Positions 1 through 31,317 of a stretch of 32,000 nt of DNA are shown here, in pieces (positions within the stretch are counted from its first letter, which is position 1; each line of letters starts with the position of its first letter). Source of the DNA: Massilicoli timonensis. GTDB taxonomy: Bacteria > Bacillota_I > Bacilli_A > Erysipelotrichales > Erysipelotrichaceae. Position numbers and translations under genes: made by a program. The stretch spans positions 1,802,180 through 1,834,179 of the forward strand of contig NZ_LT963434.1 of assembly GCF_900199515.1 (NCBI RefSeq), read 5' to 3'. Below the pieces are notes generated by a model that had not been told where the DNA came from, did not search any database, and saw only the letters and a list, made by a program, of their open reading frames with translations.

Positions 1-1446
1 ATTACCACTTTAACGACAACCTTTCAAAACTGCAAAAACATAACAGAAATCACAATCCCTTCACATGTCAGCGTACTTGATCGTACATTTATGGGGTGTA
101 CTGCGCTGACTGAGATAACGATTCCGGAAACAGTGGAATCTTATATCGGTGCATTTAACGGCTGCACCGGTTTAACAAAAGCCGTTATTGAAAGTAAAGC
201 AGACAATATCGGTGGAGATAATACTAATAATGCTTGGGGTGTGTTCGGAGGCTGCATAAACTTGAAAACAGTATCTGTCCCAGAGTGGGTAAAGGTGATC
301 GGCATAGCTGCATTCAGAGATTGCTCGTCGCTGGAAACAACAGATTTTATTGAGCAAGCGACAGTCATTAAAAGTCAAGCATTTCAAAATTGCACTGCAT
401 TAAAAGGCAGTTTACGTCTGGATGCTGTTACAATAGATGCACTTGCTTTTGATAATTGTTCAAATCTAGGTCCGCATATCAGTGTAGCAAACGCAGAAAA
501 AATGCCAAGCGATGCATTTCGCGGCTGTGATGGGGTTAATGGAATCGTATATGCACAAATGATTTCCGGCGGCGCCAACGAATTTGATTCCAGAGCAGTT
601 ACCGCTTTATTAAATGGCGGCACTTTCAAAGAAGGTACAGATCTCAATATTGCTACACTTGCTACACCGATCAAAAGAGATTATCGCTTTGAGGGATGGT
701 TTACGCAAGATGGGACAAATGATATATGGGGTGATCAAATAAATATACCGGAAAGCGGCAAAACTTACTATGCGAAATGGATCGAAAAGACAGATACCGC
801 AATATCATTCAAGGATAGCTTACAATTAGATAAAACATATGATAAACTGCCAATATCTTTATCATCAGCGGATTACACAGTAACCGCAGGTGCCGGTACG
901 GTTGATTTCCGATATCAGATGAAAGACAAAGATACTTGGCAGGAGATGGATACTGCGCCGATCAATGCCGGGACTTATCGGGTAAAAGCAGTTGTTCTGG
1001 AAAATGATACGCATAAAAGTGCACAGACAGATTGGCTGACTTTTTCGATTGAAAAAGCTGAACCGCTTTATTATGTGCCAAATGATCTGAGCGCATATGT
1101 GGGAACAAAACTGGCAGATATAGCTCTTCCGGAAGGCTTTGCATGGAAAGACGGCGATATGCAGATAGGCGGCATCGGGGAGAAGCAGTACATTGCAATC
1201 TACACACCTGAGGATCAGGTCAATTACAAATGTGTTGAGGTGGCAATCAAAATCAATGTGAAAGCGCAAAGCGAAGTTTCAGATGATACGCATGCGCAAC
1301 TGCCGACGGATAAAAATGAGGATACAAATACCGGAATCCAAACCGGTGATAACAGTCATGTTTATACATGGGGGATGATGGCAATTCTTTCTGCCTTATT
1401 CATCAGCGGTGCATTTGTGATGAAACAAAGAAAAAACGACCGTTAG
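1..1446 (+). CDS. Cell-surface protein, 5'-truncated by the window edge. Contains BspA-type leucine-rich repeats, a Listeria-Bacteroides-type repeat, an Ig-like region and a C-terminal sortase-type sorting signal.
   Basis: Frame 1 is open from nt 1; ITTLTTTFQNCKNITEITIPSHVSVLDRTF precedes the first Met at 91. Repeated F-x-x-C-x-x-L-x-x-I/V-x-I/L-P units. YRFEGWFTQDG...GKTYYAKW repeat. The C-terminus is IQTGD, then a hydrophobic segment, then a KQRKNDR tail. Confidence 0.75.
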   Translation: MTTLTTTFQNCKNITEITIPSHVSVLDRTFMGCTALTEITIPETVESYIGAFNGCTGLTKAVIESKADNIGGDNTNNAWGVFGGCINLKTVSVPEWVKVIGIAAFRDCSSLETTDFIEQATVIKSQAFQNCTALKGSLRLDAVTIDALAFDNCSNLGPHISVANAEKMPSDAFRGCDGVNGIVYAQMISGGANEFDSRAVTALLNGGTFKEGTDLNIATLATPIKRDYRFEGWFTQDGTNDIWGDQINIPESGKTYYAKWIEKTDTAISFKDSLQLDKTYDKLPISLSSADYTVTAGAGTVDFRYQMKDKDTWQEMDTAPINAGTYRVKAVVLENDTHKSAQTDWLTFSIEKAEPLYYVPNDLSAYVGTKLADIALPEGFAWKDGDMQIGGIGEKQYIAIYTPEDQVNYKCVEVAIKINVKAQSEVSDDTHAQLPTDKNEDTNTGIQTGDNSHVYTWGMMAILSALFISGAFVMKQRKNDR

Positions 1447-9478: not shown

Positions 9479-9500
9479 GAACAGGGAACTGTTCTTTTTT
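9477..9500 (+). terminator. Rho-independent terminator after the def-like gene
   Basis: AAGAACAG / CTGTTCTT stem, GGAA loop, T-run; overlaps the stop codon. Confidence 0.75.
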
Positions 9501-9552
9501 ACGGTTTTATCAGGTGATCAATTATGGAATGGCCTGCACCTTTGACGGCGCA

Positions 9553-9565
9553 AAATTGGTTTTTT
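9553..9565 (-). promoter_or_regulatory. Copy of the intergenic AAAAAACCAATTT box (minus-strand orientation)
   Basis: The plus strand reads AAATTGGTTTTTT. Its reverse complement matches 13 of 15 nt of the box at 12722-12736 and 17386-17400. Confidence 0.35.
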
Positions 9566-9924
9566 GGCAGGGAAATATAAGAAACTAACTATGTTTTACA
9601 TGCAAGCGTTCAAATGGCGGTAATACTATTTTCACGTTTTTGCGGATATGGTAATATTTAATACAATGTGAGACAAGATCATGAAAACAAATACCGACGC
9701 AGCATCGTTTCATGTGAGAAAAAAAGTTGCGTTGTGTATAAAAAGCATGGTTAAGATGTTTAGATGACACATCCATGATCATTTTCCCATAACAGGAAAA
9801 CCTTTTCCTTGTCAGAAGGAATAAAGATCAGCATGATGGGAATCGATCATCTTGAAATAGCCGAAAGTTTGTTTGTTCACGCCATCCAAGAAAAGAAAAT
9901 CAAAAACGGGAGAGAATCAGTACG

Positions 9925-11508
9925 ATGAAAAGATATTATAGAAAAATCAAATATTTTATATTATTAGATATCATTTTATATGGAGTGAGTGTTTTGTCCA
10001 CTGCATATATGTCCATATTATTGATCAGATTTATTGATCGAGGCTATCAAAGCGAATTTATAAAAATCATTTTCCTATACGCTTTCGCAATAGGAATCCA
10101 TCTGCTCACTGCTTATCTCTGTAATCTATTGCAGTGGGTATATGGGAATCGTTTTCGTTTGCTTCTATCAGAGGACTATTTTACATCGGTCATTCAGCAG
10201 CAACCGACCGATTTTTACAGTAAACCGGCACAGTATTATACTGAGTTTCATACACAGGATCTAAAGGCGATCGAAGCAGACTACCTGATGCCAATGTTGT
10301 CTATTCTAAAATGTATCATGACCTTGCTGATCAATTTTTTGGTGTTAAAAATATATATACAGGAATGGATCTTGTTTGTTGTCATGTTTTTGGCGCTGGT
10401 CAGTTTGTTGATTCCTAAGATTACCGCAAAAAGTTTAGCTAAGCGCAGAGATCAGGCGATCGAACAAATGAAGAAATTTCAGTTATACAATCAGGACTTA
10501 TTACGAGGCTATAACTGGATCAATAATAGAACAAAAGCAGCCTTTCAGAAAGAAAACCGAAAACAGATAGACGAACAATTAGAAAAAGATTTTCGCTATG
10601 GAAAGTGCAAATCTGCCGCATTGGTAATGAATGCCGGCGCTAATATGATGATTATTTTAGTTGCGATCATTTTAGTCGGTATAGAATTAAAAAACGGCAG
10701 GATGTCTTTTGGCGTAGCCAGTTCACTTATGATGAATATCGCTACATTTGTCGATCCATTTGCGGAAATCACTTATTGTATCAATGCACTTCATACGGCA
10801 AGTACGCTCAAAGACCGCTTTTTACACTTTGTAAATAACCATCAAACACCGCTCATCAAGCAAAAAGCGACAAGCGGGAATCAAATCACGATGGAACACA
10901 TTGATTATCAGATTGGAACCTATCAGCTGAAAATAGAGGAACTGATCTTTGAAAAAGGAAAAAAATATCTCATTGTCGGTGAGAATGGAGCCGGGAAATC
11001 CACTCTATTGAATCTATTAGGCAGCCAATTACTCGATTATGAGGGCAGTGTAAAGATCGATGGAATGGATATCAGAGCAGTGGACTGCACGGATTGGATC
11101 GCTTATTTAAGACAGTCCGATCACTTGTTTTTATCTGATTATGAGAATAATGTTACTTTGTTTAACAGTTATCCGTTACAGGTGAATAAACTGATTTCCA
11201 ATGACAAGATACGGCGAAATAAAAACAGAGAAGGATTAAGCGGCGGCGAACAGAAATTTGTGCTGCTGGATCGTATTTTCAATATGGATCGTGCTTTCAT
11301 TTTATTAGATGAACCATTTGCGGAATTGTCGGAAGAAGCCAAACAAGAATATTATGCGTATTTCATGCAAAAGCCAAATACGATCATCATGATCAGCCAT
11401 GATCGGGTCGATTACAGTCTATTTGATGCCGTTGTGAAAGTAAAGAAAGAAAATAATTGCGCATATGCTTATGCAACGCATCCCTTTCATCAGGATGGAA
11501 CAGTTTGA
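9925..11508 (+). CDS. Fused ABC exporter half-transporter (N-terminal 6-TM-type domain plus C-terminal ATPase)
   Basis: Walker A GENGAGKST, signature LSGGEQ, Walker B ILLDEP and H-loop ISHD in the C-terminal third. The N-terminal 300 aa are hydrophobic. Confidence 0.8.
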   Translation: MKRYYRKIKYFILLDIILYGVSVLSTAYMSILLIRFIDRGYQSEFIKIIFLYAFAIGIHLLTAYLCNLLQWVYGNRFRLLLSEDYFTSVIQQQPTDFYSKPAQYYTEFHTQDLKAIEADYLMPMLSILKCIMTLLINFLVLKIYIQEWILFVVMFLALVSLLIPKITAKSLAKRRDQAIEQMKKFQLYNQDLLRGYNWINNRTKAAFQKENRKQIDEQLEKDFRYGKCKSAALVMNAGANMMIILVAIILVGIELKNGRMSFGVASSLMMNIATFVDPFAEITYCINALHTASTLKDRFLHFVNNHQTPLIKQKATSGNQITMEHIDYQIGTYQLKIEELIFEKGKKYLIVGENGAGKSTLLNLLGSQLLDYEGSVKIDGMDIRAVDCTDWIAYLRQSDHLFLSDYENNVTLFNSYPLQVNKLISNDKIRRNKNREGLSGGEQKFVLLDRIFNMDRAFILLDEPFAELSEEAKQEYYAYFMQKPNTIIMISHDRVDYSLFDAVVKVKKENNCAYAYATHPFHQDGTV

Positions 11509-11626
11509 TCAGGGAGTGTCATCTGTTTTGTAAACGCGCTTGATTTCAAAGAAAGTCGCTGAAAACATGATCATGCACGCGTTTTGTTCTTTATGATATT
11601 TGAAAACAGCGGAAATCGAATGCCAT

Positions 11627-11665
11627 GAAAAAAGGATGAGCGTCATCGTTTTATGACACTGATCC
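11627..11665 (-). terminator. Rho-independent terminator of the lipid kinase gene (minus strand)
   Basis: On the minus strand, a GGATCAGTGTCAT / ATGACGCTCATCC stem (2 mismatches) directly after the stop codon, followed by T6. Confidence 0.6.
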
Positions 11666-12538: not shown

Positions 12539-12671
12539 GTAAATTCCCTTCCTTTGTTATCCTTACTCATTTTACATGATTCAAAACCGATGTGCAATGA
12601 AATGTACGGATTATCTGCTGTTTTATAGGACATCAGATACGCGAACATACGCTATGGCAAAGGAATAAGAG

Positions 12672-12682
12672 AATTGGTTTTT
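12672..12682 (-). promoter_or_regulatory. Copy of the AAAAACCAATT box oriented toward the minus-strand lipid kinase gene
   Basis: The plus strand reads AATTGGTTTTT. It is embedded in the near-palindrome AAGAGAA-TTGGTTT-TTCTCTT (12667-12687). Confidence 0.35.
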
Positions 12683-12721
12683 CTCTTGTCAAAAGTAAAG
12701 TATTTGTTCGTTTTTATAGTT

Positions 12722-12775
12722 AAAAAACCAATTTATGAAAAAGTGTTTACAAGAAACCACTTGATATGCTTAAAT
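12722..12775 (+). promoter_or_regulatory. AAAAAACCAATTTAT box plus an extended -10-like element upstream of the permease/ATPase/secreted-protein operon
   Basis: The 15-mer at 12722-12736 is identical to 17386-17400. TGcTTAAAT at 12767-12775 lies 30 nt downstream. No good -35, as expected for an activator-dependent promoter. Confidence 0.45.
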
Positions 12776-12826
12776 TAGAACAACATTACTATCATATCTT
12801 CATATAAAAAGTGTAGGTGATCGACC

Positions 12827-14890
12827 ATGAAAAAAATTATTTCCGTATTCATCGTATTTATTTCCTTTTTGGTATTTCATATCAGTTTCCAAGAGTATGG
12901 AGAGATTGAATGGCTCAATTTAGAAAATCCGACAAGCAGCATCAGTAAAGCATTAAATCAAACGTCATATCGGGTGGTTCTTACTGATGATGGCAAGGGT
13001 AATCTGCTGGAGGATATCATGGATTTTGCCGATGAGAACGATTTGATCGTGTTCGGTGGAAGAACCGATCAGCATCCGGATTTTACCGATGTTTCCAGCT
13101 ATTATGTATATACAAAAGATTGCCGGATATTTGATGGAACCTTCTTTTTGTACGATGGCAAGCAGATATGTTTTGATGACCATAACGCATACTATACGAC
13201 TAATGTGAATGATGAGCAGGCAACCGGCTATATTGAAACGGTTAATCGTGAATATCTGAAAGCATACGGCGATAAATTTGAGTTTCATTACTTTGATCGT
13301 TTTTTTGAAAAAGGAGAACAGCCGTTTCTGGCAGCGTGGTTTATCACAGCGCATCCGGAGAAATTTATCTATCAGCTCAATCACTCTAATCTGAAACAGT
13401 ATATAAGAGAAGGAGATGAAGCGAGCATTTTTCATTCCGCCGAAAAACCTGCCGCAGTCAATCAACTGATCGTACTGCTGTTGTTTGTATCATTGATCTC
13501 AATGGTATTGCTGTTTCTATGTAAAATCGTGCAGGAACGAAAAGAGATCCTGATCAGGAAAATGCAGGGGATGTCGTCAATTTCCATTTTCATGAGGAAA
13601 TATTTATGGGAATTACTTGCTTTTTTCCTTATTTATATCGTTGTACAGATCATCTGCTTTTATTTCGCTGTCGGCAAGATCACTGCCGCAACGCATGGAC
13701 TGATTGACATACTGCTTCGCTATTTCACGATTTACAGCTGTATGATACTGGTGTTGGCAGTCGTTATGATCTTGTTCATTTGGAATAGGAAAGAGATTTC
13801 TTCCATCAAGCGAAGCAATACGCAAAAGCAGATTCCGATCATCAATATGATCTTAAAAATCGTTGTGATCATACTGATCATAGAACCGTTGATCAGTTTT
13901 ACAAAAACAGGGATACGGCAAGCACAAACCGCTCTCTATATGAATGAGCAGGGGCATGTATTATCCAATTTATTGTTCATCTATGGCTTGAAAGAAAATA
14001 CCGGCAATTTAGGACCGATCATCATAAAGATGAGAGAGTATTTTAATGAAAACGGGGGCTGGTATCAGGATTGGCGAAAATATATTCCGGAGATAAAATA
14101 TCCGTATGTGGTCGTAAATCAGAATTATCTGGAAAACTATGATCTTTATACAACTGACGGCAAGAAACTGGATCTTTCAAAGTTAAAACAAGATCAATTA
14201 TTAGTTCCGGAAAAGTACCAATATCAAGATTTGAGTTACTATGGAATGGAAAACAACAAGGGGTACTATGATGGGGAAATCATCGTTTTGAAGAACGGCT
14301 ATCATATTGATAATCTTGATGTTTATAGCTCTATGAATGGCTTTCTCGGTGCAGATGATCCGATCATCTATGTGAAAACTAAAATGGATTCTGACTGTCA
14401 ATGGAATTATTCGTACATGACGATCTATTTAGACGATGAGCAAAAAAAGGAAAAATTGAATCAGTACCTGCATGAAGTCGGATTAGAGGATGAGGTACTG
14501 TTGGCGACATCGCAGCAGCACTATCAAATAATGAAAGAGAAAGTAAAAGATGATCTGATATCGGTTTTATCCTTGTTTGTTATTTATTTGGTAATCATCT
14601 GCACCTTCTTATATGAAAATATATTTATCTACTTCATTGAGAACAAGACAAAGTTTGCGGTGCGTTATCTGAATGGAAGCAGTTATTGGGAACGACATGG
14701 CGATATGATAAAACTAAATTTAGGTGCATATGCAATACCGCTTTTATACGGATATTTCCGGCTGCATATCGCATTGTTTGACATATTGGCGTTTACTGCA
14801 TTGGCGATGATAGTGGAATTAGCGGCGGCTTACGTGATCATTACGCATTTTGAAAAAAATCGTATCGTGGAAGTGCTGAAAGGAGAGTAG
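12827..14890 (+). CDS. Large integral membrane protein with two FtsX-like permease modules; architecture of the bacteriocin-associated (DUF1430/TIGR01654-type) membrane proteins
   Basis: 687 aa. N-terminal TM, about 190-aa extracytoplasmic domain, TM cluster, second extracytoplasmic domain of about 200 aa, and a C-terminal TM cluster. Paired with a MacB/LolD-type ATPase. AGGTGA RBS. Confidence 0.65.
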   Translation: MKKIISVFIVFISFLVFHISFQEYGEIEWLNLENPTSSISKALNQTSYRVVLTDDGKGNLLEDIMDFADENDLIVFGGRTDQHPDFTDVSSYYVYTKDCRIFDGTFFLYDGKQICFDDHNAYYTTNVNDEQATGYIETVNREYLKAYGDKFEFHYFDRFFEKGEQPFLAAWFITAHPEKFIYQLNHSNLKQYIREGDEASIFHSAEKPAAVNQLIVLLLFVSLISMVLLFLCKIVQERKEILIRKMQGMSSISIFMRKYLWELLAFFLIYIVVQIICFYFAVGKITAATHGLIDILLRYFTIYSCMILVLAVVMILFIWNRKEISSIKRSNTQKQIPIINMILKIVVIILIIEPLISFTKTGIRQAQTALYMNEQGHVLSNLLFIYGLKENTGNLGPIIIKMREYFNENGGWYQDWRKYIPEIKYPYVVVNQNYLENYDLYTTDGKKLDLSKLKQDQLLVPEKYQYQDLSYYGMENNKGYYDGEIIVLKNGYHIDNLDVYSSMNGFLGADDPIIYVKTKMDSDCQWNYSYMTIYLDDEQKKEKLNQYLHEVGLEDEVLLATSQQHYQIMKEKVKDDLISVLSLFVIYLVIICTFLYENIFIYFIENKTKFAVRYLNGSSYWERHGDMIKLNLGAYAIPLLYGYFRLHIALFDILAFTALAMIVELAAAYVIITHFEKNRIVEVLKGE

Positions 14891-14894
14891 AGCG

Positions 14895-15530
14895 ATGGCA
14901 AAAATAATAGAAGTGAAAAAACTGTGCAAAGCGTTTGGCGATCAGCAGGTATTCGAAGATTTTTATGCGGAAGTAGAAGAAAATGAATTTGTGGCGATTG
15001 CGGGGAAATCCGGAAGCGGGAAATCGACATTGTTGAATATGATCGGTTTGTTGGATAAACCAAGCAGCGGAGATATCATCTTATTTGGGGAAAAGAATAT
15101 CAAACCGTTTTCCATGCGCGCCGAAAAAATGTTGAAGCATCACATCGGTTATTTGTTTCAAAACTTTGCCTTAGTGGAAAATGAGAGCGTCTATTACAAC
15201 ATGATGCTGGCGATAGAAAATCAGAAGATCAAAGATAAGAAAACGAAGATTGCGGAAGCGTTAAAGGCAGTCGGTTTAGAAGGGTATGAAAATAAAAAGG
15301 TCTATAAATGTTCGGGAGGGGAACAGCAGCGGATCTCGATTGCACGGCTTTTGATCAAGCCTTGTGATCTGGTCTTGGCAGATGAACCGACGGGAAGCTT
15401 GGATCACGAAAATAAAAAAATCGTGTTTGACTTATTAAAGAACTTACAGAAGTTAGGGAAAACGATCGTGGTCGTTACACATGATGAAGAGATGATTGCG
15501 GTGGCAGATCGGACGATCATGATTTCATAG
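14895..15530 (+). CDS. ABC transporter ATP-binding protein (MacB/LolD/FtsE-like)
   Basis: Walker A GKSGSGKST, signature CSGGEQQR, Walker B LVLADEPTGSLD and H-loop VVTHD. Starts 4 nt after the permease stop. Confidence 0.9.
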   Translation: MAKIIEVKKLCKAFGDQQVFEDFYAEVEENEFVAIAGKSGSGKSTLLNMIGLLDKPSSGDIILFGEKNIKPFSMRAEKMLKHHIGYLFQNFALVENESVYYNMMLAIENQKIKDKKTKIAEALKAVGLEGYENKKVYKCSGGEQQRISIARLLIKPCDLVLADEPTGSLDHENKKIVFDLLKNLQKLGKTIVVVTHDEEMIAVADRTIMIS

Positions 15531-15595
15531 CGGGGATATGATCATATTGTTTCTGTAATATGATGATATAAATTTGGTGAAAGGAGGAAAAGAAA

Positions 15596-15928
15596 ATGAA
15601 GAAAATCACCAAAACAGTTTTATGCAGTATGGCTTTGATAGCCGCATCGGGAGCAACTGTGTTTGCGGATATGAAGAAGATTCCGGATCCGGGCAGCGTG
15701 ACCTTAAAGTATGGAAGAGCCCAGACAATGGATACGCCAAATGGATTTGGAACACAGGGAAAATGTGATGATGTGAAAGATGCGCGTGTAGCCGTGTATG
15801 TGAAAGATACATACAATAATGTAATGGCAGCCGCCACGGTAAAACCGAATGCGACCGGTAGTTGTACGTGGAATGCACCGACCGGCACCCCACATGAACA
15901 TCACGCAGGCTCGGATTTATATAAGTAA
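15596..15928 (+). CDS. Small secreted protein (110-aa precursor, about 85-aa mature, two Cys); candidate Sec-dependent bacteriocin-like product
   Basis: AAAGGAGG RBS. Signal peptide MKKITKTVLCSMALIAASGATVFA|D. Last gene of the permease/ATPase operon. No family recognisable by eye. Confidence 0.6.
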   Translation: MKKITKTVLCSMALIAASGATVFADMKKIPDPGSVTLKYGRAQTMDTPNGFGTQGKCDDVKDARVAVYVKDTYNNVMAAATVKPNATGSCTWNAPTGTPHEHHAGSDLYK

Positions 15929-15956
15929 TAAGCAGCACGCATCGTGATAGGAAATA

Positions 15957-15989
15957 GGAGAAGCGAAGGAAATACGCTTGTCCTTTTCT
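15957..15989 (+). terminator. Probable rho-independent terminator after the secreted-protein gene
   Basis: GGAGAAGCG / CGCTTGTCC stem (1 mismatch), 9-nt loop, TTTTCT. Confidence 0.45.
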
Positions 15990-16092
15990 GCTTATCATGC
16001 GTATTCAATGTGATAGAAATAATTTCAAAAGTAGTGGGAAGATAAAAGAATCTATGGTAAGATAAATACGGTTATTTTAAGAGGGCGGTATT

Positions 16093-17325
16093 ATGGGAAA
16101 TAAAATGAAGACGATGTCACAGCAGGTAAAGGAAGAAATCTATTTGTTGTTGGAAACGTATCGTAAGATCAGCGGAAAAAGCGTAAAAGAATTTACAGCA
16201 AATAATGGGAAGATCGGCTGTTCTGTTACGAGCTATCGCAGAATGGGGCATCAAGGGGTTTCTGATTATCAATATTTAGATTTATTGGACTTTCATCAAA
16301 AAACATATTGCCAAACGATTCCGTTAAACGAACAAGAGCAGCATACTGTCAGGGAGTTACATCAGGCAGTTGTTTTTTATCGTTATGATACCTGCATCGC
16401 TTTGATTGATGAATTGACTGCACAATTAAAATCCAGTCAGGATATACGGGTGTATTTACTGTGGCTGTTTTTGGAAGAGCTAAGAGAATATTTTGAAAGT
16501 ATCAACTATTTAGACGAAGAGCAGATCAGGGCATATCTTAGCATTGCGCATTTATATCCGACAGAAATAAAGGATTTGATAGAGTTTTATTGTGTTTATT
16601 CAGCACAGAAGGTATCACGCTTATTGATGCATGAGATTTATCAAAATACTGAAATAGGATATAGTAAATTTCCGCCAGTTGTTGTGCATGCAATGGCGTA
16701 CGATTTTAATTATGAAGAATTTGAACGCGGGATTATAAAAAGTGCCGGTCTGAAAAAACAGGCAATGGAGACTGACAATCATGTACTGCTGTTTGAATAT
16801 TATGACAGCATGATCACTTACTATATTCAATGTGAACCGGATAAGGTTAAAGATGCATTGATCAGTATGGAAGAACTAATAAATAAGTCTTCTTTTCCAA
16901 ATGCGAAAAAAATCCAATTTTATAACAACGCAGCACATAATTATGTGTTTTTGAATTGTTTTGATCAAGCTCTGTATTATTTTGAACGCTATCTTCATGA
17001 GGCAAGTAAATTAAAATTGTGTTTAGATGGAAATATTTATACCAATATAGTTTTTTGTAAACATATGTGTGATATGCCATATGATATAGATTTAGAAGTA
17101 TTAACAACAAACAAATTTTATAGTTTGGCAGACTATTACTTATATGAATATTTTATGGAACAGTCTTTGCTTGAAACAAGAGATAAGAAAATTCGTTTTA
17201 TCAGAAATAAAATAATCAAGCACTTTAGTAAAGATGATAACTTCACTAAATATATGGTTCGATTAGAATTGATGAGAATAATCGATCAAAGTAAAAATTT
17301 AGATTTGATCCTACAAACGATGTAA
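16093..17325 (+). CDS. Cytoplasmic HTH (XRE-like) plus long helical-repeat (TPR-like) regulator; candidate RRNPP-type peptide receptor (paralog 1)
   Basis: 410 aa with no TM or signal peptide. N-terminal YRKISGKSVKEFT...CSVTSYRRM resembles an XRE HTH. The remainder is rich in Y/L/E/F helical repeats. Collinear similarity to the 29852-31066 product. Followed by a propeptide gene. Confidence 0.65.
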   Translation: MGNKMKTMSQQVKEEIYLLLETYRKISGKSVKEFTANNGKIGCSVTSYRRMGHQGVSDYQYLDLLDFHQKTYCQTIPLNEQEQHTVRELHQAVVFYRYDTCIALIDELTAQLKSSQDIRVYLLWLFLEELREYFESINYLDEEQIRAYLSIAHLYPTEIKDLIEFYCVYSAQKVSRLLMHEIYQNTEIGYSKFPPVVVHAMAYDFNYEEFERGIIKSAGLKKQAMETDNHVLLFEYYDSMITYYIQCEPDKVKDALISMEELINKSSFPNAKKIQFYNNAAHNYVFLNCFDQALYYFERYLHEASKLKLCLDGNIYTNIVFCKHMCDMPYDIDLEVLTTNKFYSLADYYLYEYFMEQSLLETRDKKIRFIRNKIIKHFSKDDNFTKYMVRLELMRIIDQSKNLDLILQTM

Positions 17326-17385
17326 TCATTAGAAAATGTGGTTTTTGCGGAATAAAACATGAGGAAAATTCAATAAAATAAAGGC

Positions 17386-17437
17386 AAAAAACCAATTTAT
17401 AAGAATCTCTTTCTTTTTGTGAGAGATTTGGTAAAAT
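17386..17437 (+). promoter_or_regulatory. AAAAAACCAATTTAT box plus an extended -10 (TGgTAAAAT) upstream of propeptide gene 1
   Basis: The 15-mer at 17386-17400 is identical to 12722-12736. TGGTAAAAT at 17429-17437 lies 28 nt downstream. An inverted partial copy, AGAGATTTGGT, sits at 17422-17432. Confidence 0.5.
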
Positions 17438-17465
17438 CATATCGTTAATAGGGAGGTTGTGTTTA

Positions 17466-17576
17466 ATGAGAAAAATGTTATTAGGTACTTTGATGTTCGT
17501 AATGCTGGCAGCTCTTGCTACACCGGTTTCGGCAGATGAGCCGATGCCTATGGGTACTTGGAACGAAAAAGTATAA
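17466..17576 (+). CDS. Unannotated 36-aa secreted propeptide (candidate quorum-sensing pheromone precursor 1): MRKMLLGTLMFVMLAALATPVSADEPMPMGTWNEKV
   Basis: GGGAGG RBS 9 nt upstream. Canonical Sec signal peptide with a VSA|DE cleavage site. 13-aa exported tail. Terminator immediately after the stop. Located 140 nt downstream of the regulator. Confidence 0.7.
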   Translation: MRKMLLGTLMFVMLAALATPVSADEPMPMGTWNEKV

Positions 17577-17603
17577 GATCATAGAACGCTATGGTCTTTT
17601 TTT
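17577..17603 (+). terminator. Rho-independent terminator after propeptide gene 1
   Basis: GATCATAG / CTATGGTC stem (one G-U pair), AACG loop, T7. Confidence 0.75.
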
Positions 17604-17671
17604 ATTGCCTGCGCTATACATTTTCAGACTTTTGAGATAAAATAATGAAGTTATCAGAAAGGACTGATGGT

Positions 17672-19042
17672 ATGAATAAAAGCCGTATGGAAACAGAGCC
17701 GATCGGGAAATTATTGTTTTCCCTCGCAGTGCCGACGGTATTGGCGCAGTTAGTCAATCTGCTTTATAATATCGTGGATAGAATTTTTGTCGGAAGAATG
17801 GCAGGAGTCGGTGATCTGGCATTGGCAGGTCTGGGCGTCAGTTTCCCGATCATCATGTTGATCAGCGCATTTGCGGCGTTGATCGGGATGGGCGGTGCCC
17901 CAAGAGCCTCTATTCATATGGGAGAGAAGCGCAATGATAAAGCGGAGAAGGTACTGGGGAACTGCGTGAGTGCACTTACGATCTGTGCGATCATACTTAC
18001 GATCGTCTTTTTATGGATCAAAGATCCGATCTTGCTGCTGTTTGGCGCCAGTGAAAAAACGCTGCCTTATGCAAGTGATTATCTGGGCATCTATTTGATC
18101 GGTACGATTTTTGTGCAGTTTGCATTAGGATTAAACATGTTCATCACTTCGCAAGGTTTTGCGAAAACCGGAATGGCGACCGTTTGCATCGGAGCGATCA
18201 TCAATATCATTCTGGATCCGATCTTTATCTTTGTGTTTGATATGGGAGTGCGTGGAGCGGCATTGGCAACGATCTTATCACAGGCGGTATCGGCGCTTTG
18301 GGTTTTGTACTTCCTTGTGGGGAAACGTACGATCTTAAAGATTCGTAAAGAGAATCTGAAATTAGAGCGAACGGTCATGATGCCGGTGCTGGCTTTAGGG
18401 ATTTCGCCTTTTGTCATGCAGGCGACGGAATGTCTGGTGCAATTAACCTTTAATAAAAGCATTGCTTATTATGGAAGCGATCTATATGTTACGATGATGT
18501 CGATCTTATTTTCGGTCATGCAGTTTATTTGGCTGCCGATGCAGGGATTTTCTCAGGGAGCACAGCCGATCCTAAGCTATAATTTCGGCTCGGGCAACTA
18601 TGAACGGGTACGCAAAACTTTTCGCTTGCTGTTTCAGGCGCTGATTGTTTATTCATTGCTTTTGGTCGGCAGTGTCGAGCTGTTTCCGCAGTTCTATATC
18701 GAGTTATTTGCACCTGACAATGCGGCGTTAATGGAGATTGCGGTGCCCGGCATTCGAATCTTTATGTTCGGCATGATGTTTATGGGCGCGCAAAGTGCTT
18801 GCCAGCAAACTTTTCTTGCACTGGGGGAAGCAAAGGTTTCTATGTTTCTGGCGTTTTTGCGCAAGCTGATCTTGCTTTTGCCGCTGATCTTGCTTTTGCC
18901 GCTGTTTGTCAAACCGGGAACGACCGGGGTATTGTTGGCGGAAGCGGTTGCCGATATTTTGGCGGTCAGCGTAACGGTGATCATATTTTCAAAGCGTTTT
19001 CCGCAGATCTTGGCAAAAAAGAGGCAAGAAACAAGTATGTAA
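17672..19042 (+). CDS. MATE-family efflux transporter
   Basis: 12-TM-type protein with the typical N-terminus PIGKLLFSLAVPTVLAQLVNLLYNIVDRIFVG. AAAGGA RBS favours ATG 17672 over 17645. Confidence 0.85.
   Translation: MNKSRMETEPIGKLLFSLAVPTVLAQLVNLLYNIVDRIFVGRMAGVGDLALAGLGVSFPIIMLISAFAALIGMGGAPRASIHMGEKRNDKAEKVLGNCVSALTICAIILTIVFLWIKDPILLLFGASEKTLPYASDYLGIYLIGTIFVQFALGLNMFITSQGFAKTGMATVCIGAIINIILDPIFIFVFDMGVRGAALATILSQAVSALWVLYFLVGKRTILKIRKENLKLERTVMMPVLALGISPFVMQATECLVQLTFNKSIAYYGSDLYVTMMSILFSVMQFIWLPMQGFSQGAQPILSYNFGSGNYERVRKTFRLLFQALIVYSLLLVGSVELFPQFYIELFAPDNAALMEIAVPGIRIFMFGMMFMGAQSACQQTFLALGEAKVSMFLAFLRKLILLLPLILLLPLFVKPGTTGVLLAEAVADILAVSVTVIIFSKRFPQILAKKRQETSM
18866..18901 (+). repeat. 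Perfect 18-bp tandem duplication inside the MATE gene
   Basis: CTGATCTTGCTTTTGCCG occurs twice back to back and in frame, giving LILLLP-LILLLP in the last TM region. Confidence 0.95.
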
Positions 19043-29851: not shown

Positions 29852-31066
29852 GTGCTGTCATTACAGAAAAAAAGAAATCTTTATCATGAATTAGAAATGT
29901 ATCGCCTCTGGCATTGCTGGTCGCAAAATCGTTTTGTTTCAGACATGATATCTTATGCGACGTATGCCAAAATGAAGGAAGCGAATAATCGCATACAGGA
30001 CCAGAGCTACGTTGATTTACTGTCATATTATGGGTTTGACATTGAACATGATCTGGTCTATCACGAAATAAAAGAACAAATCGTATCGCTGCATGATGCT
30101 TTGAGCAGATGTGAATTAGAAAGCAGCAGTGCATTGCTTGAACAATTAGAACATCATTTATCTATACAAAATACCTGTATAGAGAGCATCAATCTGCGAT
30201 TGTTTTTGCATAGACTGTTACAGTATGTAAAGAATGATGTTTATTTGAGTGAAAGCCAAATTGAAGCATTGTTATCTTATTATCAGAATAAGCCAAAACC
30301 ATTGAAGGACCTCATTTTATATTATATGATCTATTCTGCTACTAAGATCAGCTTTACCTATCAGCAATATTTATATGAGAAGATAGAAGCATTACGCGTA
30401 TCGGATTATTTGCCGATCATGGTTCATTATATGGGATATTTGATCAACTGCAAACAATTTCAAAAAGCGTTGTTATTAGGAAACGAAATCTATCAAAAAG
30501 CGCATGAAACAAAAAATCACTATATGCTGTTTGAGTATTATGAGAATATGCTTGCTTATTATATTCGATATGAACCAAATCAAGTAGAGAAAACCCAGAA
30601 ACAGATAGAAGCAATCATGAAGCAAATCCATTTTCCGAGAATCAAAAAGATGCAATACTATCGTAATTATGCCAAACGGTGTATTTCAAAGCATGAATAT
30701 CAAAAGGCTTTAGCCGCATTTCAAGAGATACAAGAATACAGTTTACAAGGGAATGTTCATGATCGTGTGAGCATTATATATAATATCACTTTTTGCGAAA
30801 GCCAACTTCAAATTCCTTATAGCATCGCTTATGATTATGCATTGAAAAAAGAACATTTTGAAAGCAAGGCTGATTATTATTTGTTTCAATATTTACTAAA
30901 GAAGAACGATATGACAAATGCACAACGGGTTCGTTATTTGCATAAGATTGCGAAAGTCATGAAAGATCATGAGGATTATACGAAATTTCAAATAAGGGAA
31001 GAATTATATATGATTAGTATGAAAGATAAAAAGGCAGATCTTTTCCGCTATCTGGAGAATAGATAA
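29852..31066 (+). CDS. HTH (XRE-like) plus helical-repeat regulator; candidate RRNPP-type peptide receptor (paralog 2)
   Basis: GTG start 6 nt after GGGAGGAGG. N-terminal YRLWHCWSQNRFVSDMISYATYAKMKEANNRI resembles an XRE HTH. Blocks shared with paralog 1 include HYMLFEYYENMLAYYIRYEPNQV vs HVLLFEYYDSMITYYIQCEPDKV and LKDLILYYMIYSATKIS vs IKDLIEFYCVYSAQKVS. Confidence 0.65.
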   Translation: MLSLQKKRNLYHELEMYRLWHCWSQNRFVSDMISYATYAKMKEANNRIQDQSYVDLLSYYGFDIEHDLVYHEIKEQIVSLHDALSRCELESSSALLEQLEHHLSIQNTCIESINLRLFLHRLLQYVKNDVYLSESQIEALLSYYQNKPKPLKDLILYYMIYSATKISFTYQQYLYEKIEALRVSDYLPIMVHYMGYLINCKQFQKALLLGNEIYQKAHETKNHYMLFEYYENMLAYYIRYEPNQVEKTQKQIEAIMKQIHFPRIKKMQYYRNYAKRCISKHEYQKALAAFQEIQEYSLQGNVHDRVSIIYNITFCESQLQIPYSIAYDYALKKEHFESKADYYLFQYLLKKNDMTNAQRVRYLHKIAKVMKDHEDYTKFQIREELYMISMKDKKADLFRYLENR

Positions 31067-31194
31067 ATCACATAAAAAGTAAACAATTATGCAACTTTTT
31101 TCAGCGTTATCTAACCTATTTGTAAACAGTGGCATTTTGTTATGGCGTGTGATAATCTAAAGATAGGAAAGGAGTTTATAATAAAATTGTTGTA

Positions 31195-31317
31195 ATGATG
31201 AAAAGAACTAAGATATTATTAAAATTAGCATTGCTTTTCTGCTTGATCGTTTTGACGGCAAATGCAGTAGAAAGCATGCAACCGCGTTCAAGAGAAACGT
31301 GGATAGAAAAAAATTAA
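31195..31317 (+). CDS. Unannotated 40-aa secreted propeptide (candidate pheromone precursor 2): MMKRTKILLKLALLFCLIVLTANAVESMQPRSRETWIEKN
   Basis: Sec signal peptide with an ANA|VES cleavage site. 16-aa tail whose end, ETWIEKN, parallels GTWNEKV of peptide 1. Lies 128 nt after the regulator. The RBS is poor (GGAAAGGAG is 20 nt upstream), which lowers confidence. Confidence 0.55.
   Translation: MMKRTKILLKLALLFCLIVLTANAVESMQPRSRETWIEKN

Follow-up and report, generated by a model that had tools for sequence, protein, structure and literature searches.

A regulatory gene followed on the same strand by a gene for a small exported peptide poses a definite question: do the two constitute a peptide quorum-sensing cassette and, if so, of what lineage and in control of which genes? 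The pair considered here lies in a 32,000-nt stretch of the chromosome of Massilicoli timonensis, an Erysipelotrichaceae gut bacterium (contig NZ_LT963434.1, positions 1,802,180 to 1,834,179, forward strand; this whole stretch is referred to below as the window). It consists of the gene for a 410-residue cytoplasmic protein, here called the receptor, and the gene for a 36-residue propeptide. In Bacillota, competence, virulence, bacteriocin production, conjugation and phage lysogeny are under the control of RRNPP-type peptide quorum sensing. Many RRNPP systems and computational candidates are on record and, to our knowledge, almost all that is understood of them comes from Bacilli and a few Clostridia. 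The M. timonensis cassette is probably an autoinduced RRNPP-type quorum-sensing system that represents a new, very narrowly distributed family and controls a bacteriocin-type module. An RRNPP-type arrangement had been proposed in a preliminary description of the same DNA, and the computational analysis supports that proposal.

The cassette has the following parts (open reading frame, ORF; helix-turn-helix, HTH; tetratricopeptide repeat, TPR; AlphaFold2, AF2).

16093..17325, + strand: gene for the 410-aa receptor (WP_102269201.1, annotated 'hypothetical'), with an XRE-like HTH at residues ~10-67 and ~8-9 helical hairpins of a TPR-like solenoid at residues ~80-409 (AF2, hhalign)
17451..17456, + strand: Shine-Dalgarno sequence GGGAGG, 9 nt 5' of the ATG
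17466..17576, + strand: propeptide gene, 36 aa, MRKMLLGTLMFVMLAALATPVSADEPMPMGTWNEKV, stop codon TAA
17466-17534, + strand: predicted Sec signal peptide, residues 1-23 (by inspection)
17535-17573, + strand: predicted exported tail DEPMPMGTWNEKV, 13 residues (by inspection)
17575..17605, + strand: intrinsic terminator, a 10-pair hairpin (17575-17598) followed by a T-run

Anatomy of the cassette and predicted fold of the receptor

The receptor and propeptide genes are read from the same strand and are separated by 140 nt. Their coordinates, the GGGAGG ribosome-binding site and the hairpin with T-run after the propeptide stop codon are as first described. The signal peptide, read by eye, also has the features originally ascribed to it: an M-R-K n-region, a 16-residue hydrophobic core (residues 4-19; best 10-residue Kyte-Doolittle mean 2.76) and a P-V-S-A/D-E junction that fits the -3/-1 rule and would leave a 13-residue tail, which is acidic (net charge -2). 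(A similarity of the signal-peptide part to the NprX_fam model, with E 0.072 and 12.9 bits against a cutoff of 33, is not significant.) Throughout the 32 kb, this is the sole ATG-initiated ORF of 20-80 aa to pass a strict small-ORF filter requiring at least two K/R among the first 8 residues, a 10-residue hydrophobic core and a Shine-Dalgarno sequence 4-20 nt upstream. The propeptide ORF is invariant in 8 strain loci, and the exact 36-aa peptide is present on 488 public contigs. The 36-aa ORF is more than a chance reading frame. It had been reported as unannotated and as missed by ORF calling. The former holds, as far as can be seen, for the reference annotation only: the peptide has no NCBI accession or name, but the gene finders of public metagenome assemblies do call it. 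The ORF tool lists the frame from an upstream TTG at 17457. The possibility that the 140-nt spacer is a structured RNA or riboswitch was considered and rejected (fold z = -1.45, zero Rfam matches).

The AF2 model of the receptor, which is built on a 4-sequence alignment, is all-helical (pLDDT 85.6, pTM 0.77), with four short helices at the N-terminus (residues 10-67), after which come ~17 helices in a hairpin arrangement. (The model generated from the single sequence is uninformative, with pLDDT 36.5.) The top 50 matches of the model to the Protein Data Bank (PDB) in Foldseek are exclusively TPR-type solenoids, and RRNPP members are found among them: PlcR (3u3w), NprR (5dbk_B), AimR (5zvv and 6s7i), ComR (5jub) and Rap (4gyo and 8rsv_B). 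The top TM-scores in that list are those of Rap-phi3T (8rsv_B, 0.50/0.55) and then NprR (5dbk_B, 0.47/0.53, rmsd 8.4), while the two AimR structures score 0.42-0.47. PlcR, NprR and AimR, with which a structural comparison had been suggested, are all in the list, but at weak E-values. A structure search of BFVD yields generic TPR/Sel1 matches only.

The N-terminal segment of the family aligns in hhalign with a set of 7 classical XRE HTH sequences (83% probability, E 9e-6, 58 columns in register), and the best match of the N-terminal profile among PDB sequences is the XRE protein HipB (E 0.54). In paralogue B of the receptor (considered below) the HTH_3 model matches weakly (E 0.16), and a phage PHROG model for 'transcriptional regulator' matches the same N-terminal region (E 0.04). 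The two structural assignments made at the outset hold up: the XRE-type HTH is borne out by profile alignment but not by a significant HTH hidden Markov model (HMM) match to the receptor, and the helical-repeat region is borne out by the AF2 model and its Foldseek matches but not by sequence HMMs for TPRs. We conclude that the receptor, as modeled, joins an HTH to a TPR-like solenoid. DNA-binding RRNPP receptors are built in this way, and homology of the receptor to any one of them is not demonstrable.

Sequence comparison places the receptor nowhere. It has no match among the Pfam-A, NCBIfam, PADLOC or PHROGs models, and no sequence match among all PDB chains at E <= 10 (phmmer and hmmsearch); in these same collections it has no sequence similarity to NprR, PlcR, Rgg/ComR, AimR, Rap or PrgX. 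The initial impression that no signature of a characterized member is recognizable holds in every one of them, and by sequence the cassette is not assignable to any of these six groups. The TPR models of Pfam and NCBIfam, likewise, give no match at E <= 1 to the receptor or its paralogues, so that HMM-based detectors such as RRNPP_detector would miss the locus.

What this means operationally can be put in terms of the published RRNPP signature: a propeptide of 10-100 aa, secreted by Sec (SignalP) or according to the SHP model, and encoded adjacent to a receptor of 250-500 aa that matches TPR HMMs at E < 1e-5 with > 65% coverage (Bernard et al. 2023, PMC10075063). Propeptide size, receptor size (410 aa) and adjacency of the genes all fall within these bounds, secretion by Sec is plausible on inspection of the propeptide, and the TPR element is present at the level of structure, as the helical-hairpin solenoid of the AF2 model and its TPR matches in Foldseek. 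(The TPRs of AimR are also poorly detected by generic HMMs; PMC10075063.) The cassette is RRNPP-like in every respect that can be checked by computation. Massilicoli and Erysipelotrichia find no mention in the accessible parts of PMC10075063 and its supplements.

Related cassettes and the peptide C-terminus

Relatives of the receptor are few. An exhaustive phmmer search of 1.84 billion representatives yields just 4 distant relatives and one fragment. Zero relatives are found by tblastn in plasmids and phages, and zero related loci in GTDB genomes and JGI metagenomes; a back-translated scan of the GTDB and JGI collections for [FY]EYYxxMxxYY gives 109 and 30 pattern matches, with 0 relatives among them by tblastn. 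Across 8 strain loci, which were chosen for an identical receptor protein, the receptor gene varies by synonymous substitutions only. The phmmer search returned neither the full-length cluster of the query itself nor paralogue C2, and the GTDB scans also lack M. timonensis. The species is apparently missing from those collections, so that the size of the family is under-counted and constitutes a lower bound.

Two paralogous cassettes, one of them in the window and the other in other M. timonensis strains, and one locus from a gut-type assembly provide the informative comparisons.

29852..31317, + strand: paralogous cassette C2, 404-aa receptor and 40-aa exported-peptide ORF
29852-31066, + strand: C2 receptor, 404 aa, GTG start (WP_102269221.1, 'hypothetical'), 31% identical to the 410-aa receptor
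31195-31317, + strand: C2 peptide ORF, 40 aa, MMKRTKILLKLALLFCLIVLTANAVESMQPRSRETWIEKN, ending ETWIEKN
8001-11067 in L019-L022 and 5863-8928 in L010: cassette B, with 403-aa receptor, 38-aa signal-peptide ORF, 64-aa ORF and 321-aa lipoprotein

The C2 propeptide would be divided by the predicted cleavage, after TANA, into MMKRTKILLKLALLFCLIVLTANA and VESMQPRSRETWIEKN. Paralogue B lies between smpB and an operon of the phosphotransferase system (PTS) and is found in two alleles, one intact and coding for 403 aa, the other with a TAG nonsense codon; the 38-aa signal-peptide ORF that follows it is seen on 27 contigs. The pan-genome of this one species accordingly holds at least 3 receptor paralogues. 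The closest relative elsewhere is a Logan gut-type assembly (L018), in which a receptor 37-47% identical precedes a hairpin terminator and, after it, a 27-aa ORF (1258-1341) with a GGGGAG ribosome-binding site, MYALLMYFIKLSFNNIPTPIPDWYEKD, that ends in PIPDWYEKD. Adjacency of a receptor with a small exported ORF is kept in both paralogues, C2 and B, and adjacency with a small ORF in L018. The suggestion that the small ORF should be conserved next to receptor homologues is sustained by these three and fails at a fourth relative, L016.

When the C-termini GTWNEKV, ETWIEKN and PDWYEKD are anchored at the stop codon, W, E and K occupy fixed positions, and T is common to two of them. A C-terminal W-x-E-K-x is present in three of the four small ORFs, and the family motif that these sequences define is [T/D]-W-x-E-K-x-stop. 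Anchoring at the stop leaves no alignment freedom, and tryptophan is rare; coincidence of W, E and K by chance is judged to be very unlikely, which is an estimate rather than the outcome of a formal test.

Several minor features of these loci may be recorded. The 40-aa ORF of C2 is missing from the protein collection, and 20 nt separate its AGGAG from the ATG. Encoded 25 nt 3' of this ORF (to 31963), with no terminator between, is an orphan 206-aa secreted protein. The L018 receptor is frameshifted; similarity of the ORF downstream in L018 to the 206-aa protein was considered and is not significant. In L016, an in-frame TGA immediately precedes the receptor ATG. L016 (~100-150) and L017 (~480-520) contain Nextera adapter (translations VSYTHL, DVYKRQ and CIRDR) and are chimeric contigs. 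Linkage of a MATE transporter to the family, suggested by MATE and RsmF genes next to the receptor in L017, is discarded on this account, the adjacency in an adapter chimera being unreliable.

Shared boxes, the adjoining operon and the likely sign of regulation

Immediately 5' of the receptor gene lies an operon of bacteriocin type, and further upstream an ABC exporter gene. Each of these transcription units shares sequence elements with the promoter region of the propeptide gene.

9554..9564: AATTGGTTTTT, the left box in its third copy, with an extended -10 98 nt downstream and a degenerate right arm, ahead of the ABC exporter gene
9649-9657: extended -10 TGgTAATAT of the ABC exporter gene (three-promoter alignment)
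9925-11508, + strand: ABC exporter gene, 527 aa, strain-variable (absent from strain locus L005)
12672..12733: perfectly inverted boxes, AATTGGTTTTT-N40-AAAAACCAATT, 5' of the DUF1430 operon and with the same geometry as at the peptide gene
12767-12775: extended -10 TGcTTAAAT of the DUF1430 operon (three-promoter alignment)
12827..15928, + strand: putative regulated operon (DUF1430 protein, ABC ATPase, 110-aa secreted protein)
12827-14890, + strand: DUF1430 'bacteriocin-associated integral membrane protein' (Pfam E 1.8e-10, 41.4 bits against a cutoff of 28.2)
14895-15530, + strand: lactococcin-972-group ABC ATPase (TIGR03608, 250.8 bits, just below the cutoff of 254.85)
15596-15928, + strand: orphan 110-aa Sec-type exported protein (predicted)
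17336..17346: left operator arm, degenerate, ATGTGGTTTTT, inverted partner of the right box at a distance of 40 bp
17387..17400: right operator box, AAAAACCAATT(TAT), ending 31-34 nt upstream of the -10
17404..17428: AATCTCT-N11-AGAGATT, a second inverted repeat, which covers the -35 position in the promoter of the peptide gene
17429..17437, + strand: extended -10-like TGgTAAAAT of the peptide gene, aligned with those of the other two promoters

The 11-mer AAAAACCAATT has 4 exact copies in the window, against an expectation of 0.05 (0 of 100 shuffles reach 4), and all 4 are located in three intergenic regions upstream of + strand genes. Inverted pairs of boxes with an identical 40-bp spacer precede the peptide gene (17336/17387) and the DUF1430 operon (12672/12723). 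The three promoter regions can be aligned box by box as far as their extended -10 elements, 96-98 nt from the left box, and the boxes are kept in all strain loci; sharing of the boxes is not random. The peptide promoter has no good -35 hexamer, which fits dependence on an activator. (The AATCTCT-N11-AGAGATT repeat was entertained as a shared operator and dropped, there being zero further copies.)

The DUF1430/ABC/110-aa operon, the receptor gene and the peptide gene together occupy a low-GC island (12600-17800; 25-40% GC, against 44-50% in the flanks), and low GC content over the whole block suggests that it was acquired horizontally as one unit. The 410-aa receptor is the only DNA-binding protein encoded in the island, and it is from this proximity that we infer its binding to the boxes.

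The cassette would then work as follows. The 36-aa product would be exported by Sec and cleaved after VSA, and its 13-residue tail would be trimmed extracellularly to a C-terminal oligopeptide containing T-W-N-E-K-V. On re-import, for which RRNPP systems use Opp, this peptide would bind the cytoplasmic receptor on the concave side of its TPR-like domain, and the XRE-type HTH of the receptor would recognize the AAAAACCAATT boxes as inverted repeats 40 bp apart. The boxes ahead of the peptide gene would close an autoinduction loop, those ahead of the lactococcin-972-type operon would place the DUF1430 protein, the ABC ATPase and the 110-aa secreted protein under the same control, and the accessory ABC exporter gene would have a partial site. 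Of the two signs, activation by the receptor in its peptide-bound form is the more likely; it would turn on bacteriocin-type production and immunity at high cell density.

The opposite sign, as in AimR and PrgX, is conceivable and is judged to be unlikely. The apo receptor would in that case bind the long-spacer operator, and the peptide would release the receptor or alter its oligomeric state, thereby shutting off or re-programming both the bacteriocin-type operon and the peptide gene. Negative pheromone autoregulation is less common in chromosomal RRNPP systems (PlcR, NprR, ComR). The peptide promoter is without a recognizable -35, and the placement of its right box, ~31-34 nt upstream of the -10, is typical of an activator; both argue for activation. 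On the other hand, the DUF1430 promoter possesses a fair -35 (TTTACA) and may need no activator, AimR structures are among the Foldseek matches, and the long-spacer inverted boxes resemble the AimR operator, which consists of 6-bp inverted boxes with an unusually long spacer of 25 bp (PMC6458997). The phage peptide compacts the AimR dimer, which then no longer spans both half-sites (PMC6458997). AimR is the one precedent for inverted boxes with a long spacer.

A second alternative is less probable than a reversed sign. It supposes that the receptor acts as an HTH-TPR transcription factor without sensing the neighboring peptide, in which case the small ORF would specify a separate secreted product (a small peptide of the adjacent module, bacteriocin-like or accessory, or a signal for a different, membrane-bound sensor). 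The locus does adjoin a lactococcin-972-type export/immunity module, and L016 has no exported small ORF. However, the small ORF travels with the receptor rather than with the bacteriocin module, and C2 and L018 have the same arrangement and W-x-E-K-x with no adjacent DUF1430/ABC genes; moreover, no histidine kinase or response regulator is encoded near the cassette. A 13-residue acidic tail is also unlike the known unmodified bacteriocins. That the small ORF arises by chance, or that the intergenic region functions as RNA or DNA alone, with the receptor an orphan regulator, is suggested by the shortness of the ORF and its lack of a database name or NCBI accession, and is hardly credible in view of the strong Shine-Dalgarno sequence at 9 nt, the terminator directly after the stop codon, a signal-peptide architecture that is unique in the window under the strict filter, invariance among strains, retention of the C-terminal motif in two further cassettes at 31-47% receptor identity, and the want of significant RNA structure or an Rfam match.

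The preferred reading, of an autoinduced RRNPP-type cassette in control of the bacteriocin-type operon, has to be set against a number of observations that weigh on the other side. The alignment underlying the AF2 model is thin, at 4 sequences. All Foldseek E-values are >= 2e-3, and generic eukaryotic TPR proteins (proteasome-lid, LGN) outrank the RRNPP members, so that the fold class is supported and homology to RRNPP receptors is not. TPR and HTH HMMs are all below significance on the 410-aa receptor itself, and the hhalign match to a consensus TPR is local and weak (8% probability, confined to one repeat at residues 279-302). Six of the 7 sequences in the XRE set used for hhalign were entered by hand, and the HTH turn of the 410-aa receptor is 4-5 residues longer than the canonical one. 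With regard to the peptide, the L018 product has no charged n-region, so that its export route would differ; the paralogue B peptide lacks the W-x-E-K motif; and no recognizable exported small ORF is found downstream of the receptor in L016. With regard to DNA, the boxes are not found at homologous loci, the receptor is linked to them by proximity only, and one strain has a substitution in the left arm of the second palindrome (17408).

A lactococcin-972-type module would comprise a DUF1430/TIGR01654 membrane protein, a TIGR03608 ABC ATPase and a bacteriocin of the lactococcin-972 family, and the operon is a candidate for one. The match of TIGR01654 to the DUF1430 protein is partial (69 bits against 189). 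The 110-aa protein matches no bacteriocin model and has no homologues, and its candidacy as a recognizable relative of lactococcin 972 is rejected on these grounds. A perfect 8-bp inverted repeat, ATCATATT-N8-AATATGAT (15541-15564), separates the ABC ATPase and 110-aa genes. An indel of ~2.07 kb (9479-11665) comprises the ABC exporter gene together with its boxed promoter and is missing in L005 (compare 1459-1574). Between the exporter promoter and the ATG is a 265-nt leader whose ORFs include one of 28 aa (9681-9767).

Relation to known systems and other loci

Four groups of characterized systems resemble the cassette in different ways. NprR-NprX of the Bacillus cereus group combines an HTH and long TPR array in a receptor of ~420 aa with a Sec-exported propeptide of ~43 aa. 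The M. timonensis cassette shares the HTH, the long TPR-type array, the approximate receptor size and a propeptide predicted to be of Sec type, and NprR is among the best structural matches; in contrast, there is no sequence similarity, the conserved motif is at the extreme C-terminus and the genes regulated would be others. In PlcR-PapR and Rap-Phr, a TPR-type cytoplasmic receptor is likewise paired with a downstream Sec-exported propeptide, the C-terminal part of which is the signal, and PlcR (3u3w) and Rap (4gyo/8rsv) are Foldseek matches. Neither is similar in sequence to the 410-aa receptor: PlcR (~285 aa) is much shorter and binds a compact palindrome, while Rap has a three-helix bundle in place of the HTH and acts on proteins instead of DNA.

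AimR-AimP of the SPbeta-group Bacillus phages is alike in receptor size, in the N-terminal HTH and TPR-like domain, in the peptide gene directly downstream on the same strand, in a propeptide of (here predicted) Sec type with its signal, here putative, at the C-terminus, and in inverted boxes with a long spacer (11-bp boxes and a 40-bp spacer here, 6-bp and 25-bp in AimR). It differs in having no detectable sequence similarity and in belonging to phages and not to the chromosome of an Erysipelotrichaceae gut bacterium. The boxes also differ in placement: here they precede the peptide gene and a bacteriocin-type operon, and do not lie downstream of the peptide gene. In Streptococcus pseudopneumoniae and S. 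pneumoniae, the ComR-type regulator ScbR and a XIP-like peptide (ScbS) are encoded beside, and control, the lactococcin-972-like scbABC (PMC11796350). ScbR control of scbABC is a direct precedent for the regulatory logic proposed for M. timonensis: in both cases a regulator of RRNPP type, probable in M. timonensis, and a small peptide gene adjoin a lactococcin-972-type module, here a candidate one, and ComR (5jub) is a Foldseek match. However, ComR-type receptors have ~300 aa and pair with leaderless peptides that are not exported by Sec (PMC10075063). There is again no sequence similarity, the gene order here is DUF1430, ABC, secreted protein, and the 110-aa protein fails the lactococcin-972 models.

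Taken jointly, these features may delineate a self-contained, sequence-orphan RRNPP-like lineage in Massilicoli and a few related uncultured gut bacteria, with C-terminal [T/D]-W-x-E-K-x pheromones and 11-bp inverted boxes 40 bp apart, and invisible to HMM-based detectors; this wider proposition is tentative. Its 40-bp spacer would be longer even than the 25 bp that had been regarded as peculiar to AimR and would call for a very extended dimer or a looping tetramer. If the proposition is true, counts of peptide quorum-sensing systems in Erysipelotrichia and other under-sampled gut Bacillota are systematically too low. A family of this kind in a human-gut Erysipelotrichaceae species, unrecognized by HMMs, marks a blind spot of current detectors. 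Cell-cell signaling would be linked to bacteriocin-type competition in the gut and, should the receptor bind the 40-bp-spaced operator, the unusual way in which AimR recognizes DNA would be extended. The locus is well-defined and readily testable, offering a peptide motif, DNA boxes and a target operon.

Cassette B and its surroundings vary among strains. In about half of the contigs with cassette B, an in-frame TAG removes the HTH, leaving an HTH-less product of 357 aa. (Stop-codon reassignment as an explanation of in-frame stops in homologues is rejected: L010 is M. timonensis itself, with a 99.2% identical flank, and an intact 403-aa allele exists.) A box, AAAAACTGCAT, with an extended -10 is duplicated upstream of the cassette B receptor gene and of its lipoprotein gene. 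Mobile elements that differ by strain are inserted by smpB, just upstream of the cassette (L010 1443-5312; L020 3581-7450; L022 1-7603); one comprises a serine recombinase and a Mob_Pre relaxase, and another a serine recombinase with DEAD/ResIII and HTH genes. The smpB-adjacent site looks like an integration hot spot. Where other strains hold cassette B, the window (91-1446) encodes a surface protein of the BspA leucine-rich-repeat type that has Listeria-Bacteroides repeat and MBG domains and a membrane anchor at its C-terminus; its frame is 451 aa from the first ATG (91) and is still open at the 5' end of the window.

Finally, a different 11-mer, GCAACTTTTTT, is found just after the C2 receptor stop codon (31091-31101), and recurs as its reverse complement in the leader of the exporter gene (9720-9730). 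A hairpin that follows the L018 receptor (1157-1186), AAAAAGTTG...CAACTTTTT, is similar to the GCAACTTTTTT site. Elements of this type could be terminators or a C2-type operator.

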